Assembly (NCBI GenBank): GCA_046290225.1
Contig: JBKAGE010000080.1
Location: 3,619-67,618, forward strand
Source: Bradymonadia bacterium
GTDB lineage: Bacteria; Myxococcota_A; Bradymonadia; UBA7976; UBA1532
Direction of reading: 5' to 3'
DNA: 64,000 bases
The translations under genes and the position numbers were made by a program. The notes beneath the pieces are model-generated. The model was not told the DNA's origin. It was given only the letters and a program-made list of their open reading frames with translations, and did no database searches. Position 1 is the stretch's first letter. Every line of letters begins with the position of its first letter. This document shows positions 16,391 through 30,850 of the stretch, piece by piece.

Positions 16391-17692
16391 ATGCAGATGC
16401 GTCTCAACCGTACCCTTGTGTCCGTTCTTGGTGCTGGCGCGCTTTCCATTGGTGCCCTGAGTGGTTGCGCCGAGGAGACCGACCAGTCAGAAGTGCAGAG
16501 CAGCCAGGAGGCGCTCTCCTCCGCCACCATCAAGGGGCGGGTCTTCGACATGATGGACCTCCCGGTAGCCGGTGCAGAGGCGATTGTGATGAACGGCTCT
16601 CAGCAGACTGAGTACCGCACCTTCGTGGGGGCCGACGGGAGCTACACACTCCGCGACGTGCCCGTGAACCTTCTCTTGAACAAAGAGGCGGTCATCCTCT
16701 TTGTGACCCCCAAGGTGGACCTGCCACCTCTGGGCACGGTGGAGGGTGACTACATCCACGAGATGCCCATGACCATCAACCAGTTCATCGAGCCCCTGGA
16801 GATCGGGGTCAAGGAAGAGATCATGGCCCGGCCGGCCTATGTACCTCTCCAGGCGAAGGGATACACCCTGACCCCCGAGGTGATGGCCAACGGCGGTGAC
16901 TTCACCTGGACCTACCCCGACGACGGGCTCCGCGGTGAGCTGACGGTGACGCTGCGGGTGGCCCCCGGCGCGATGAACGTGCCCGAGGACGTCGACTACC
17001 AGAACGAGCTCACCATGACCCCCGTCGACTACTTCAAGACCCCCATGCGGATCCCCAACGGCGGCGCCGGGGCCCTCTGGACCATCCAGCCTCGGGAGAT
17101 CACCTTCGATCCCCCCGCAGAGATCACCCTCGTGGGCGATCGCGGCGCCCTGCTGGGCTCCCTCTCTGCCGATTCCGAGATCGGCGACGCCATCGAGCTG
17201 TACGGGGCGACCTATGTAGAGGGGTGGTACAAGTTCGGTGACGCGCACATCGCCGATCTCACCGAGGACAAGGTCACCATCGACTCCAACGGCGGCATCA
17301 TCCCCAAGGGCGCCTGGGGCCACGTGCTCGGTGCCGAGGGCGTGAACGCCGCGGTCATCGTGCACTGCAAGGACTGCGACGCCGACGGCAACCTTGTCCC
17401 CGTGGCCTGCCAGATCGACCGTGACCTCTCCGTGGCCCCTCGCCAGCCCGACTGGACCGATGACCAGGTCATGCGCACCGACAACGAGATCCGCGCCCGT
17501 GCCGCCGGCGTCGATCCCTTCGCCATGGCAGCCGTGGGCCTCTGGCTCACCAACGACGGCGCTCAGGCCCGCCTGCACATCACTCAGGCCGACACTCAGG
17601 AAGCCTGGACCTTCACGGCCTACGACGTCGACGTGAACGAGCGCCGCGTGCTCGAAGCCAACTTCTGCGCCGTGGATGGCTTCTACCCCTGA
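16391..17692 (+). CDS. Lipoprotein with carboxypeptidase-regulatory-like (Ig/prealbumin) domain
   Basis: GAGGAG RBS, lipobox LSGC, TIKGRVFD..DLPVAGA...GADGSYTLRDVP. Confidence 0.75.
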   Translation: MQMRLNRTLVSVLGAGALSIGALSGCAEETDQSEVQSSQEALSSATIKGRVFDMMDLPVAGAEAIVMNGSQQTEYRTFVGADGSYTLRDVPVNLLLNKEAVILFVTPKVDLPPLGTVEGDYIHEMPMTINQFIEPLEIGVKEEIMARPAYVPLQAKGYTLTPEVMANGGDFTWTYPDDGLRGELTVTLRVAPGAMNVPEDVDYQNELTMTPVDYFKTPMRIPNGGAGALWTIQPREITFDPPAEITLVGDRGALLGSLSADSEIGDAIELYGATYVEGWYKFGDAHIADLTEDKVTIDSNGGIIPKGAWGHVLGAEGVNAAVIVHCKDCDADGNLVPVACQIDRDLSVAPRQPDWTDDQVMRTDNEIRARAAGVDPFAMAAVGLWLTNDGAQARLHITQADTQEAWTFTAYDVDVNERRVLEANFCAVDGFYP

Positions 17693-17747
17693 TCTCCTGC
17701 TCGCCCCCCTCGCCTCGATCCGTTCACCTCATCTCGGGAGTATTTAC

Positions 17748-18218
17748 ATGAGCCGTCTCATCATGATCGTGTTGTGTGTACTGTCAGGTGCCCTCTTTGG
17801 GTGCGTCGAGGCGACGGATGTGCCCGAGCCTCTCCACGGTGTGCAAATGGGGCAGGACCCCCTCGGGGTCTACAACCCCATCGCCAATGGGGAAGAGATC
17901 CCCGTCATCTACGGCTACCAGGGTGGGTTCCATCTCCCCATGGCCATCCAGGCAGCCGGCGCCGAGCACGGTGAGGTGCTGGAGATGTGGTTCACGGTCA
18001 CCGACATCTCCACGGACGAGGTGGTGGCTCAAAATCGCTTCCTCCGCCAGGTCGACGACATCGACGAGAATGGGAACTTCATCGTCGGCGGGCTCTATGT
18101 GCTCGTCGAGGGTCCCGATCTCGTCGCTGACCGCAAGCTGCGCATTACAGCGGAGATCTCCGATGGCGATGCCGTGTCGTCCGTGGAACGCTGGGTCTGG
18201 TGCGTGAACGAGCACTGA
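17748..18218 (+). CDS. Lipoprotein, myxobacterial-type YG-x-QGGFH family
   Basis: GGGAG RBS, lipobox LFGC, GEEIPVIYGYQGGFHL. Confidence 0.75.
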   Translation: MSRLIMIVLCVLSGALFGCVEATDVPEPLHGVQMGQDPLGVYNPIANGEEIPVIYGYQGGFHLPMAIQAAGAEHGEVLEMWFTVTDISTDEVVAQNRFLRQVDDIDENGNFIVGGLYVLVEGPDLVADRKLRITAEISDGDAVSSVERWVWCVNEH

Positions 18219-18637: not shown

Positions 18638-18965
18638 ACTCCCTCAGATTCTCACCGGCCAGCAACCCGATGACTCAAATGCACAAGCATGATGGTGTGT
18701 GTGCATCTCATTGATGGGAGATACTCATGAAGATGTTCAACAATGACTCGATGTCCGCGAACAGCACCTCCACCCTGGTCGCCCTCCTGTGCACGAGGCC
18801 CCAGGAAAGAAAACGAACTGACACCAGACGCTCGATAGAGGTCAGGCCAAAGGCGCCTGCATGTGCGGTGAGGGCCACCTGAGCCCACTCTCTGCTCCAT
18901 CGCCGACCACACTCAAGATGACCTCTTATCGTGCCCTACCCCTTTCGATACTCAGGAGTCAGTTC

Positions 18966-19475
18966 ATGCACATCAGCGCACTTCACACCCTTCAGATCTC
19001 TGTGCGAGCCCGCCTGGGCCTTCAGAACAACCACTTGAAGGCCCTCGGTCTCGTAGCGCCCGAATATTCACCGCTCTCGGCCAGCCTGGTCGTCGATCGA
19101 GCCGGGCACGCTTTGGAGCATTTGGCGCCCGACGCCCGAGTGCCCCTCGTGTATGGCTTCTGGCGGCAAGGATGCCTGCCCTTGGGGTTGATGGTGACTC
19201 ACCATGGCACGTCACGGCCCATCGAGGTGTGGCTTTCCCTGACCGACGCATACACAGGGGAGACGCTGGCCCGACATCGTTTCATACGCAAGACCCGAAG
19301 TCATGAGCACCCGGAGGTGCAGATGCTCATGGGCCTCTATCTGCCTGTGGATCAGTCTTCGGAGATGATTGGGCGAAACGCTCAGCTCAGCTTTCGGGTC
19401 ACCCTCGGCGATGCACAGTACGAGGACAGCCGCCGCATCGTCATCACGCAGCCGGAGCAGGGTGCCCGAGCGTGA
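18966..19475 (+). CDS. Hypothetical protein, paralog of 17748-18218 without a lipobox
   Basis: AGGAG RBS 7 nt before ATG. VPLVYGF..., EVWLSLTDAYTGETLARHRFIR and GLYLPV align with IPVIYGY..., EMWFTVTDISTDEVVAQNRFLR and GLYVLV. Confidence 0.7.
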   Translation: MHISALHTLQISVRARLGLQNNHLKALGLVAPEYSPLSASLVVDRAGHALEHLAPDARVPLVYGFWRQGCLPLGLMVTHHGTSRPIEVWLSLTDAYTGETLARHRFIRKTRSHEHPEVQMLMGLYLPVDQSSEMIGRNAQLSFRVTLGDAQYEDSRRIVITQPEQGARA

Positions 19476-23499: not shown

Positions 23500-23515
23500 C
23501 GGCACACTGGTTGCT
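23500..23515 (+). promoter_or_regulatory. sigma54 (-24/-12) promoter
   Basis: CGGCAC-ACTGG-TTGCT matches YGGCAC-N5-TTGCW, 78 bp upstream of ATG 23594. Confidence 0.65.
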
Positions 23516-23593
23516 AAAAGCATACGTTCAGTGCCCAATAGACACGGGCCACATGGCCCTCAGAGCCGTGTTCGAGACAAGGGGTCGACCCAC

Positions 23594-25741
23594 ATGAAGC
23601 ACTTTAACTTTACCCTGCACAGCCTGTTGCTCCTCGCAGCAGCGCAGCTCACAGGCTGCGCTCAGGGCACCGAAGAGGCACCCCTCGACGTGAGCGATGG
23701 CGTGCCTCTCACCCGGGAGATCGAGGTCAGCAAGGATCGCCTGGTCGAGGCACCGGTGAACCTCGAAGTGCAGCTCATCGACTTGCTGCCTGGTGAGAGC
23801 CCGGAGGCGGCGATCCGCCGCGTATACGGCAACCTGCAGATCGTCAGCGACACCTCGATCCTCATCGAGGCGCAGCTCGAGGAGCAGGGCCTGCTCAACC
23901 CTCAAGGACAGACCGAGAACGATCCCGCCGCACAGGACGAGCAGCTCGATCTGGAGTCTGGCCCTCAAGGTGGGCCGCGCCTCGGGCAGCCATGTTTTGC
24001 CGAGAGCCAGTGGGGCACATGCGCTACGGGGCAGTCCTGCGCAGGCACCCCTGTGGGCAACATCTGTCAGGGTGATGGCGTGAGTTGCTGTATCGAGGCC
24101 TCGAACCCGCCCGAGCAAATGCCGCCCGAAGAGATGCCCCCAGAGCAAATGCCTCCAGAGCAGATGCCGCCTGAAGAGATGCCCCCAGAGCAAATGCCAC
24201 CTGTGGGGGATGACATGGTGTGCAACAACAGCTGCTTCACCGCCAATGACGAGGTGTGTGACGACGGCGGCGAGGGCAGCAACTTCGATGTCTGCCCCAT
24301 GGGCACCGACTGCGCCGACTGTGGTCCTCGCCAACGAGGTGAGGCCCCGCGTCAGGGGCCGCCGCAGCCAGATCCGCCTCAGCAAGATCCGCCGCAGCAA
24401 GATCCACCGCAGCAAGATCCACCGCAGCAGGATCCCCCACGGCAGGACCCCCCGCAGCAAGATCCACAACAGCCTCCTCAACAGCAGGCCCCTCAGGACA
24501 ATGATCCTCTCGGCACGCGCTGCACCGCTCAGGGCGTCGCCGGCACCTGTCAGAACGTCGACCGCTGCCGGGACGGCGCCGGGCTGGAGCCCATCCCTGG
24601 CCATTGCCCGGGCGATCACACGGTGCAGTGCTGCATTCCACAAGCACAGCCTCAGAACAACACCAACAACCATGACGGCCAGCGGCCTTATGGCGCCGGT
24701 GAGGCATGCACCGCGTATGGTCAGCGGGGCGTGTGTGGCACCCCCAACGACTGCATGGGTGGCCGACGAGAGGCGGGGTTCTGTCCTGGCGACGACGACA
24801 TCCAGTGCTGTCTCGAAGACAACGCGTCACAGCCTGCCCCTGGGCAGCTGCCGCAGCTTGGTCAGGCCTGTGTCGCCAACGGTGAGGCCGGCGTCTGTTC
24901 CCGTGTTCAGAGCTGCGCAGGCACCCCTACCCCGGGGTACTGCGCTGGAGACAACAGCATCCAGTGCTGCATCGAGGGTGAAGAGAAGCTTGCCTGGTTT
25001 GCCGTGCCACTGGTCATTGAAGGGGCCAGCCTGGCCATCGCCCTCTATCGCGGCTACCGCGCGGCCCGTCTCGTCGGCACCGTGATCACCACCACTCGAA
25101 ATGCCCAGGCGGTGCGGGTGGGCATCTACACAGGTGCTCAGTCCATCGATCGCGCCCGCCGGCTCGGTTACGCAGGTGGACGCACACTGGAGAGCCGCAT
25201 CGGCAATGTGGTGGACAACTTCTACAGAGCTGCTGCTCTCGCCGCCGCAGCGGAGCGGCTCAGCGACATGGGAGGCATGTGCCGCCCCGATGATCTCAAC
25301 GCCTACAGTGATGGACGCCGGGACAGTGGCAGCTGCAGCCCGGAGGATCACTGCCAGCTCGCGAACATCAAAACGCAGAAGTGCGACCAGCAACCCCACA
25401 GCTGCAATGGCATCGGCGACAACCAGGTCAACAGCATCACCAGCCGGCTGCGGAACAACCCGAGCCTTGTCCTGCCCCCTACGGAGCGCGAGCTCGTGAG
25501 GGCATGGTGTGAGCTCGCTCAGAGCAGAATCGACAACGGCGCCGAGTGCCTGGGCTGGCGGCAACGGATCAGCGAGGAGTGCTTCAGCGGTCGCCCAGAT
25601 CCCCGCGATCACGCCAGCGCCGAGCAGCAGGTCCTCGACGCGGGGAACAGGTGTCGCCGCAGCATGGAGCGAAACCTGTGCGACAACTTCCTCTCCAACG
25701 CACTCATGCGACTCGACATCGGTCCTGTCGATCTGGACTGA
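23594..25741 (+). CDS. Cys-rich lipoprotein with Pro/Gln linkers and a putative Ntox16-like C-terminal toxin domain
   Basis: Lipobox LTGC. Four C..G.C....C....G.C.G....QCC modules. Hydrophobic WFAVPLVIEGASLAIAL segment. C-terminal SCSPEDH..L....QKC..SC...C...RIDNGAECL..RQRI.EECF.G...H......RC. Confidence 0.7.
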   Translation: MKHFNFTLHSLLLLAAAQLTGCAQGTEEAPLDVSDGVPLTREIEVSKDRLVEAPVNLEVQLIDLLPGESPEAAIRRVYGNLQIVSDTSILIEAQLEEQGLLNPQGQTENDPAAQDEQLDLESGPQGGPRLGQPCFAESQWGTCATGQSCAGTPVGNICQGDGVSCCIEASNPPEQMPPEEMPPEQMPPEQMPPEEMPPEQMPPVGDDMVCNNSCFTANDEVCDDGGEGSNFDVCPMGTDCADCGPRQRGEAPRQGPPQPDPPQQDPPQQDPPQQDPPQQDPPRQDPPQQDPQQPPQQQAPQDNDPLGTRCTAQGVAGTCQNVDRCRDGAGLEPIPGHCPGDHTVQCCIPQAQPQNNTNNHDGQRPYGAGEACTAYGQRGVCGTPNDCMGGRREAGFCPGDDDIQCCLEDNASQPAPGQLPQLGQACVANGEAGVCSRVQSCAGTPTPGYCAGDNSIQCCIEGEEKLAWFAVPLVIEGASLAIALYRGYRAARLVGTVITTTRNAQAVRVGIYTGAQSIDRARRLGYAGGRTLESRIGNVVDNFYRAAALAAAAERLSDMGGMCRPDDLNAYSDGRRDSGSCSPEDHCQLANIKTQKCDQQPHSCNGIGDNQVNSITSRLRNNPSLVLPPTERELVRAWCELAQSRIDNGAECLGWRQRISEECFSGRPDPRDHASAEQQVLDAGNRCRRSMERNLCDNFLSNALMRLDIGPVDLD
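24107..24472 (+). repeat. Two 15-bp coding tandem arrays: (PPEQM/PPEEM)x6 and (DPPQQ)x7
   Basis: Arrays at 24107-24202 and 24371-24472. Confidence 0.9.
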
Positions 25742-25772: not shown

Positions 25773-26660
25773 TCACTTGTGACAGATCGGCCCCTTGGCC
25801 CGCACCATCACCCCGTCGGCCTCGAGCGACTGCACCACCCCCACTCCGCTTGCCGCAGGTGTGAGGCACACATCGACCTCGAGCAACCGGGTCAGCTTGA
25901 GCAGGGGCTCCACCGATGCCACCGCGGTCATCCGTGCTCTCAAGCGCTCGAGCGCTGGCGTCTCGGCGAGGGGCTCGAGATCGACCAGTCGGGGGTTGAA
26001 CGACACATCGAGCTCGGTGAGCGCCTTCTTACCTGCGAGGGGGCTCAGATCTTTCAAGCGGTTGCCGGCGAGGTTGAGCTGAGTGAGCTGCGAGAGCCCC
26101 GCGAGGGGTTTGATCTCCCTGATCCCCGCGCCATCGAGCGACAACACCTTCAAAGCAGTGCAGCCCTGCAGCCCCTCGAGGTTCTGCACATCACTGTTGT
26201 CGATCACCAGATGCGTGAGCAGCTTCAGGGCTGCGAGAGGCTTCAGCGTGCGGGGCTTCGCACTGACCAGCGTCAATGACTCCAGCGACTTCAATGCGCT
26301 CAAGGGGGTCAGATCTTCAATGTGCGTGCGCTCGTCGATGCTCGTGGCCCAGGGCGGCGGGCCGATGGAGAGCGCGCTCAACTTCGGCAACGCCGAGAGT
26401 GGGCTCAAATCGCCACCTGGCACATCGTAGAGGCTGAGAGAGGTGAGCGACTCGAGCTTCTCGATGCCTGCGAGGTTGCGCACAGGCTCGACGAACCTCA
26501 GGGCAGTGACCTCGGAGAGATCACGACAGCTCTTCTCCACGGGCAGAGCGCGTCGAATCGCCGCCCGCACGTGCACCGAGGGCACCTGGTCCGCGATCTC
26601 GGGGCAAGGTTCGATGGGGTCTCCCGGTTGGAGCAGCGCGATCAGAATCATCGGGATCAT
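25773..26660 (-). CDS. Leucine-rich repeat protein (internalin-like), probably secreted
   Basis: 22-aa LxxLxLxxNxIxDLxPL repeats; short hydrophobic N-terminus. Confidence 0.85.
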
Positions 26661-30511: not shown

Positions 30512-30850
30512 GGGCGCTCCGCGGGTAAGAGAGTTTGTCGGGCACGGGCACGGGCACGGGCACGGGCACGAGTTGATACATACCTGGACCGGTGGCCCTT
30601 CCTGGATTCAGGGCGCAGGTTGTCATTGAGGCTGAGATGGTGCGCTTCAGAACAGCCTGAGAATTCAGGTCTTGGGGTGTATGGAGGTCAAAAGCCTCCA
30701 TTGAGAAGTAGGTGGGGCCAAGCAGAGCCTCCACCATCCCAAACCTACGAGCAGAGTCATACAGGGCCACCGGTCCAGGTATGTATCAACTCGTGCCCGT
30801 GCCCGTGCCCGTGCCCGTGCCCGAAAAACTCTCTTACCCGCGGAGCGCCC
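30512..30850. mobile_element. Fold-back (MITE/REPIN-like) element copy 1 with 88-bp arms containing (GGCACG)5
   Basis: 30512-30599 is the reverse complement of 30763-30850 with one mismatch. The interior is homologous, in inverted orientation, to copies 2 and 3. Confidence 0.85.

Follow-up and report, generated by a model that had tools for sequence, protein, structure and literature searches.

The subject of this report is a gene for a 715-residue lipoprotein, P0001, on a stretch of 64,000 nucleotides from the genome of a Bradymonadia bacterium (GenBank assembly GCA_046290225.1, contig JBKAGE010000080.1, positions 3,619 to 67,618; the whole stretch is hereafter the window). Judged at the level of its family, the C-terminal domain of the lipoprotein, its tip, is a divergent Ntox16, a predicted toxin domain named in 2012 (PMC3482391). 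We suggest, tentatively and with somewhat less than even confidence, that the lipoprotein is a regulated, surface- or vesicle-borne effector against non-kin bacteria, that is, prey, with a fixed Ntox16 tip and no conserved immunity gene. What is new here is the carrier architecture and the regulatory context of a known, predicted toxin domain; the system is neither SitA nor a classical polymorphic one. An earlier note on this DNA, made from its letters alone, had described a sigma54-driven lipoprotein of polymorphic-toxin architecture with an Ntox16-like tip, and had pointed to the lipoprotein SitA toxins of myxobacteria as a precedent.

A divergent Ntox16 tip, kept throughout a lipoprotein family

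The tip of P0001 scores 18.6 bits (E=0.0022) against the Pfam model of Ntox16 (PF15523; cut-off 25 bits), the sole Pfam family that it matches. Its identity is established through its relatives: four of the eight family tips scanned pass the cut-off (P0002 37.3, L022 41.1, L023 27.9 and L057 32.9 bits), while two L024 tips reach about 14 bits and the L056 tip gives no match. Because orthologous tips exceed the cut-off, we take the tip to be Ntox16, and the pattern of Cys, Arg and His residues by which the earlier note had recognised this domain is upheld. The PF15523 search of the host genome (G000; 8.58 Mb, 64% GC, 99% complete) missed the lipoprotein gene itself, and family counts by this model are hence lower bounds.

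R656 is invariant in all 15 aligned tips, as are six Cys, with two more nearly so; the tip of the RHS protein L063 lacks both of the latter together, which suggests that these two may pair as a disulfide. Across 23 tips, the D..H motif takes the form DxxH in 14 by pattern and in two more by eye, DxxxH in three (the window's own included), and is absent from four. The tips of L024, L057 and P0008 have GLGH in place of GGDxxH and a 7-residue insertion ending ERTEND, a subtype that possibly represents a rearranged acid/His pair. An AlphaFold2 model of the tip (pLDDT 90.9, pTM 0.80) has five helices and no strands. Its best VIA match (Z 8.7, rmsd 3.3, 98 aligned; Atg1 MIT, Not5/CNOT3, spectrin repeats) neither excludes nor shows a nuclease, Z scores not being meaningful for helical bundles. 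The model has no Foldseek match at E<=0.001 in PDB or BFVD, the tip profile has no PDB sequence match, and Atlas feature matches to Ntox16 clusters (0.80, 0.78) serve as pointers only. Zhang et al. (2012; PMC3482391), in the parts of that paper drawn on here, file Ntox16 under "Predicted metal-independent RNase toxins" and list no immunity protein for it; RNase activity of the tip is thus a published guess, a prediction of 2012 only.

We searched the 31 genomes of the order with one profile each for the N-terminal domain, the pre-toxin region and the tip. The N-terminal domain matched at seven places in five genomes; all six complete genes end in an Ntox16-like tip, the seventh being cut by a contig end. 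Four of these six helped to build the profiles, and the two G041 genes are the independent ones. When the N-terminal domain was compared with 5.8 billion proteins (8000 candidates scored), eight matched: the four full-length ones all keep the tip, and the other four are N-terminal fragments, uninformative on tips. Since every complete gene with this domain keeps an Ntox16-like tip, the label "polymorphic" given by the earlier note fails, and the family, as far as these sequences go, is not polymorphic, in a sample small enough for rare swaps to be possible. That note had named an invariant C-terminus and a missing Ntox16 match as signs against its own reading; the C-terminus is indeed invariant, and the Ntox16 family match was found. 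In G000, the N-terminal domain, the hydrophobic region and the tip each occur in a single copy by their separate profiles. Wider searches added little: a metagenome scan with the N-terminal domain matched 536 stretches, of which two were confirmed, both unrelated proteins on translation; the tip profile matched one of 187 short proteins; and phmmer with the tip over 1.84 billion representatives gave four matches, one of them (P0003) spurious.

From one species to another, the tip changes more quickly than the stem does (43% against 79% identity to P0002). Within species the tip is conserved and under purifying selection: six alleles depart from P0007 at only 2-3 of the 103 residues compared, in a cluster that is at least 90% identical by construction, and on one low-depth contig from a marine metagenome, seven of the eight changes in 25273-25501 are synonymous. 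Over the lipoprotein gene as a whole, 13 of the 17 listed differences in a near-identical strain are synonymous. The tip tree is largely unresolved (4 of 20 branches starred) and a single clade for the family's tips is not rejected (p-AU 0.16), so that the tree decides neither for nor against one Ntox16 having taken the place of another.

Architecture and regulation

The features of the gene are collected in Table 1. The lipobox reported in the earlier note is present, as are its Cys-rich modules on Pro/Gln spacers. Four of these modules have six Cys and end in CC, while a fifth is of the CDDG/GTDC type; the spacers are built of PEQMP and QDPPQ. Across the family, Cys modules vary in number and kind. 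The N-terminal domain has no match in Pfam or NCBIfam. The pre-toxin-like hydrophobic and Ala-rich segment of the same note also stands: WFAVPLVIEGASLAIAL, with a Kyte-Doolittle value of 1.96, is the one stretch of 19 residues beyond the signal peptide that exceeds 1.2. A profile of the pre-toxin region matches family members only, among the 31 genomes of the order, and the AlphaFold2 model of this region is of low confidence (pLDDT under 50).

Table 1. Features of the lipoprotein gene and its downstream neighbour (positions in the window)
Feature	Position	Strand	Basis or remark
sigma54 -24/-12 promoter-like site CGGCAC-N5-TTGCT	23500..23515	+	94 bp 5' of ATG
Coding sequence, 715-residue lipoprotein P0001	23594..25741	+	start MKHFNF, lipobox LTG↓C22
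Signal peptide II, lipobox LTG↓C22	23594..23659	+	sequence; lipobox-like Cys also in orthologues
Family-specific N-terminal domain (V.K...PGE....A.R..G)	23699..23851	+	31-45% identity to 6 relatives
Six-Cys module 1, ending CC	23993..24091	+	sequence
PPEQM/PPEEM repeat spacer	24107..24202	+	sequence
Second-type Cys module (C...C...D..CDDG...C..GTDC.DC)	24221..24322	+	common in relatives; copy number varies among orthologues
QDPPQ repeat spacer	24350..24496	+	sequence
Six-Cys modules 2-4, CLIP-like, candidate cell-wall-targeting	24521-24634, 24707-24811, 24869-24970	+	module comparison
Pre-toxin-like region: basic residue (EEK↓L), hydrophobic helix 24989-25045, cationic Ala-rich linker	24974..25273	+	sequence, hydropathy
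Ntox16-like tip: eight conserved Cys, R656, D669-x3-H673, predicted helical bundle	25325..25693	+	Pfam, alignment, AlphaFold2
Internalin-like leucine-rich-repeat (LRR) gene, hydrophobic N-terminus	25773..26660	-	Pfam LRR_4; convergent neighbour, weak immunity candidate

It is possible that the six-Cys modules bind the wall of a target cell. Among five proteins of relatives scanned, the module also occurs on two Amidase_2 and two FGE-sulfatase-like lipoproteins and on an extensin-like protein whose domain score is below cut-off. An Atlas model of the last module resembles clusters of C39, NlpC/P60, fungal lysozyme and SH3_3 proteins (TM 0.84, 0.81, 0.84 and 0.74), the matches at 0.81-0.84 being short (42-43 residues) and predicted-to-predicted; against arthropod CLIP-protease clusters, TM is 0.64-0.66. 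An Atlas feature search gave no usable match for the module, and the six-Cys modules have no PDB sequence match.

The sigma54-like site is the sole match of its type in the window; at least one match also arises in 16 of 100 shuffles, and the site is hence weak taken alone. The genome has an rpoN gene, and similar sites lie 47-94 bp upstream in 9 of 13 Bradymonadia genes carrying Ntox16, from three families, a count that includes a gene cut by a contig end, a paralogue with a different tip, and kin that are not independent. The background in G000 is 107 of 5486 open reading frames (ORFs; 2.0%) and 27 of 473 lipoprotein-like ORFs (5.7%). The pattern was relaxed after some of the upstream regions had been inspected; four of the six not previously inspected matched. 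The sigma54 site on which the earlier note relied is present and kept upstream of relatives. We note that the lipoprotein-like ORFs of G000 have such sites at about three times the rate of all ORFs, several of them with GKAD-like motifs.

Neighbourhood, immunity and delivery genes

The lipoprotein gene stands alone, since its upstream neighbour, an alpha/beta hydrolase gene, is divergent and its downstream neighbour, the LRR gene, is convergent. The LRR gene lies 31 bp away, with no terminator-like site in between. No close homologue of its product was found when the order's other 30 genomes were compared (1 of 31 genomes at E<=1e-10), and the LRR gene adjoins no orthologue of the lipoprotein gene. 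Flanks of up to 5 kb on each side, compared at 10 loci, gave one shared match, a generic domain; no flanking gene is common to the 10 loci, and the window locus has no same-strand downstream gene.

TraA-N (TIGR04566) was found neither in G000 nor in the 11 other family genomes, with a control (G164) at 223.8 bits, a search that a very divergent TraA could escape. The sheath of a type VI secretion system (T6SS) was not found in G000 either, the control being positive. The SitA-like route of outer-membrane exchange, towards which the earlier note leaned, is not supported: TraA was not found, there is no same-strand partner and no conserved neighbour, and each genome has one copy. Elsewhere in G000, unlinked to the lipoprotein gene, two phage-tail-tube (PF06841) genes at G000:C82:195903-199360 suggest an extracellular contractile injection system.

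Ntox16 in other Bradymonadia and Myxococcota

Ntox16-like tips were found in 8 of 113 genomes of the class and in 13 of 401 sampled from the phylum; most of these genomes built the profile, and G080, G233 and G237 are independent of it. Three unrelated Bradymonadia lipoprotein stems carry the domain: that of the window family, one with an acidic linker (G025, G026) and a short one (G264). A segment of Kyte-Doolittle >=1.86 precedes the tip in 14 of 16 proteins scanned, and it is long and Gly/Ala-rich in L059, L060, L072, L094 and L095. The short type forms a cluster (L072:5096-11581) of four paralogous lipoprotein genes that surround one for a helicase. Ntox16 tips end three of the lipoproteins, whereas the tip of the fourth is unrelated, contains Cys and has no Pfam family; three of the four genes have their own sigma54 site, and no immunity genes lie between them. 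This cluster is a case of real tip exchange without immunity.

Outside the class, Ntox16 behaves, as its sequence contexts read, as an ordinary toxin tip. It follows DPxG in a Myxococcota RHS protein (L063), and in Polyangiaceae G251 the same stem occurs with two different tips, one of them Ntox16. In all three Polyangiaceae loci, a signal-less ankyrin gene directly follows (L062:1813-2499, L088:658-1341, L089:2835-3005), which makes it a candidate for the first immunity protein for Ntox16; its specificity is called into question because a 58% identical paralogue (L100) lies two genes after a different Cys-rich tip. The ankyrin has no tblastn match in G000. At L066:1462-3249, a secreted helical (coiled-coil) protein with Ntox16 is followed by a Cys_rich_CPCC/DUF6714 gene. 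L094:1-1878 combines low-density-lipoprotein (LDL) receptor class A repeats, a hydrophobic segment and an Ntox16 tip, and neither it nor L095 has an adjoining same-strand gene. In L093:877-2397, Ntox16 is internal and followed by some 200 more residues, a Cys-rich extension. The lipoprotein-like P0013 and P0004 have two tandem Ntox16-like domains, the first without the D..H motif.

Proposed function and alternatives

The earlier note saw a new family of lipoprotein-borne effectors, and with a toxin-like layout and the identity of Ntox16 this is a fair reading. The target would likely be other species, not kin, because the tip is the same among relatives and no antidote gene is common to their neighbourhoods. 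We picture the following course. Sigma54 and an enhancer-binding protein would switch the gene on under a specific signal. The product would be exported by Sec and lipidated at C22, and on oxidation its modules and tip would become stapled by disulfides. On the cell surface, or on outer-membrane vesicles, the spacers would project the CLIP-like modules to bind the target's wall. A cut after a basic residue, at K↓L in P0001 and at RR or QK in relatives, would release a fragment of about 250 residues led by the hydrophobic helix, which would insert in the target membrane and carry the tip across to damage an intracellular target, RNase activity being the published guess. The producer could do without an antidote, since folding of the tip would await export and siblings would not receive it. 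Induction, export, oxidation, display, wall binding, cleavage, membrane insertion, intracellular damage and self-protection are all steps that we infer. The setting is congenial in some respects: cultured bradymonabacteria kill by contact and without a T6SS, according to the parts of PMC11509652 considered, and vesicles of Myxococcus xanthus fuse with prey and less with the producer, according to those of PMC10141889.

Several observations weigh against such an effector. The host is a marine bacterium and probably a predator, but the predatory life of its uncultured lineage is drawn from its class. As described in the same parts of PMC11509652, the culture liquor of bradymonabacteria holds no lethal substance, which weighs against a freely released toxin. 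The tip of P0001 falls below the Pfam cut-off and has DxxxH instead of DxxH; the D..H motif is missing from four of the nine family tips (L056 judged by eye), and all four motif-less tips belong to the lipoprotein family, which is odd for a catalytic site. No activity is described for any Ntox16 in the literature searched, and the predicted fold resembles generic helical bundles only. The hydrophobic segment is weaker in L023 (1.23) and L062 (1.66). L056 and L057 of G041 have same-strand downstream genes, mutually unrelated, which could be private immunity genes. The occurrence of the six-Cys module on FGE-sulfatase-like proteins means that it is not specific to wall hydrolases, and the family itself is patchy, in 5 of the 31 genomes of the order.

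Some of these points would suit a non-toxic surface protein (adhesin, receptor or signal). The Ntox16-like bundle would then be a domesticated domain, stapled by disulfides and used for binding, with the hydrophobic helix as its anchor or means of oligomerisation. A fixed tip in a single copy, without an immunity gene and under purifying selection, is what one would then see, and the lost motif, the generic fold and the internal Ntox16 of L093, with its 200 or so residues after the domain, agree. Yet Ntox16 is also found at the end of an RHS protein, Polyangiaceae and the G264 cluster show it exchanged for other tips, its Arg is invariant in every aligned tip, and a hydrophobic segment stands ahead of the tip in unrelated carriers; we regard a domesticated binding domain as unlikely, though not far-fetched. 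The absence of immunity could also be explained by a toxin aimed at eukaryotes, grazing protists or fungi. Zhang et al. (PMC3482391), in the portion used here, list no immunity for Ntox16 and argue for Ntox43 that absent immunity points to eukaryotic targets, and one Myxococcota carrier bears LDL-receptor class A repeats. The Cys modules of the window family point instead to bacterial walls, and the Polyangiaceae copies are followed by a likely cytosolic partner gene, implying a bacterial target there, which makes eukaryotic targets distinctly improbable to us.

We give little credence to an effector that acts on membranes in the manner of a bacteriocin, killing by its hydrophobic and cationic helix, with the tip left to bind a receptor or to stabilise the protein. 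The near-universal hydrophobic segment, long and Gly/Ala-rich in the carriers named above, and the varying putative catalytic motif would fit it, but no hydrophobic segment adjoins the tip in L063, an RHS protein, or in L066, a coiled-coil one, and the window lipoprotein has a single helix of 19 residues. As for a SitA-like toxin of kin discrimination, passed on by outer-membrane exchange with its immunity in the convergent LRR gene or an unlinked one, we consider it very improbable and largely refuted. P0001 is, to be sure, a lipoprotein with a conserved stem and a toxin tip, the tip diverges faster than the stem between species, and the LRR gene is a close-lying singleton of a listed immunity class. 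Against this stand the lack of tip swapping and of a same-strand partner, TraA-N at 0 of 12 family genomes including G000 (positive control 224 bits), and one copy as against the 25-80 sitAI loci per genome given in the part of PMC8546572 used.

Returning to the effector against prey, a broader proposal may be ventured: that sigma54-controlled and immunity-free predation toxins arose again and again in Bradymonadia and other Myxococcota, on lipoprotein stems unrelated to one another, with CLIP-like wall-binding modules, a protease-released membrane-inserting helix, and a disulfide-stapled Ntox16 armed only after export. In this general form we hold it to be doubtful. If true, there would be candidates for the factors by which contact-dependent bradymonad predators kill, Ntox16 would have its first function, as a helical-bundle toxin unlike known RNase folds, and the Polyangiaceae ankyrin would be its first immunity protein. 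To our knowledge, few of the effectors passed to prey by Myxococcota that kill on contact have been identified. A lipoprotein that is regulated, immunity-free and tipped with a toxin domain, and whose modules likely bind walls, is a candidate for one. The results also supply a confident Ntox16 model, small natural carriers (245-715 residues) and a candidate antidote in Polyangiaceae.

Comparison with known systems

The window tip shares with published Ntox16 (PMC3482391, in the parts drawn on) a predicted all-alpha fold, a conserved Arg, the lack of a listed immunity protein, and Delta-proteobacteria among the hosts. Its D..H motif is DxxxH, against [DNE]xxH in the published domain, and it differs further in a helical insertion of about 30 residues and in its score under the cut-off. 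The carriers given there are RHS, PVC-metallopeptidase and signal-peptide (type II secretion system/Sec) proteins, whereas ours is a lipoprotein with Cys modules. We found no description of this lipoprotein-borne system in the literature searched; outside that search, Ntox16 on lipoproteins may be named in Additional file 1 of Zhang et al. or in the list, cited by PMC8546572, of 40 toxin domains of SitA proteins.

SitA toxins, in the account of PMC8546572 as far as used here, have polymorphic tips, are always in operon with sitI, need TraAB and number 25-80 per genome. Like SitA of Myxococcus, P0001 is a lipoprotein whose N-terminal region is specific to its family and whose C-terminal domain is a predicted nuclease; unlike SitA, it has a fixed, Cys-rich tip, no operonic sitI, one copy per genome and its own sigma54 site, in a genome where TraA was not found. 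Homology to the SitA escort domain was not seen as an NCBIfam match, and TIGR02269, which we take to be SitA6, gave 0 of 5 in a search run without a positive control.

With RHS and classical polymorphic toxins, the family shares the order of a basic or cleavage-like site, a hydrophobic segment and a toxin domain, and the RHS protein L063 has the same tip. In contrast to them, it has no RHS cage, no T6SS sheath in the genome, and neither immunity arrays nor cassettes that can be exchanged. In its predicted fold the six-Cys module is like the small Cys-rich modules on fungal lysozymes and NlpC/P60 peptidases and like arthropod CLIP domains, in short predicted-to-predicted matches, and differs from the 73-residue, two-disulfide SH3-like wall-binding domain described in the relevant part of PMC10394673.

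Other features of the window

Upstream of the lipoprotein gene on the + strand, 17676-18218 and 18861-19475 are tandem distant paralogues (24% identity over 98 residues, E=3e-12) without a Pfam family, the first of which has a lipobox. On the other side of it, an 88-nt inverted repeat (99% identical) with (GGGCAC)n runs lies at 30512-30599 and 30763-30850, its arms 163 nt apart. G000 has 62 matches to it that span 70 nt or more, spread over 26 contigs, so it is probably a repetitive extragenic palindromic (REP)- or miniature inverted-repeat transposable element (MITE)-like element.

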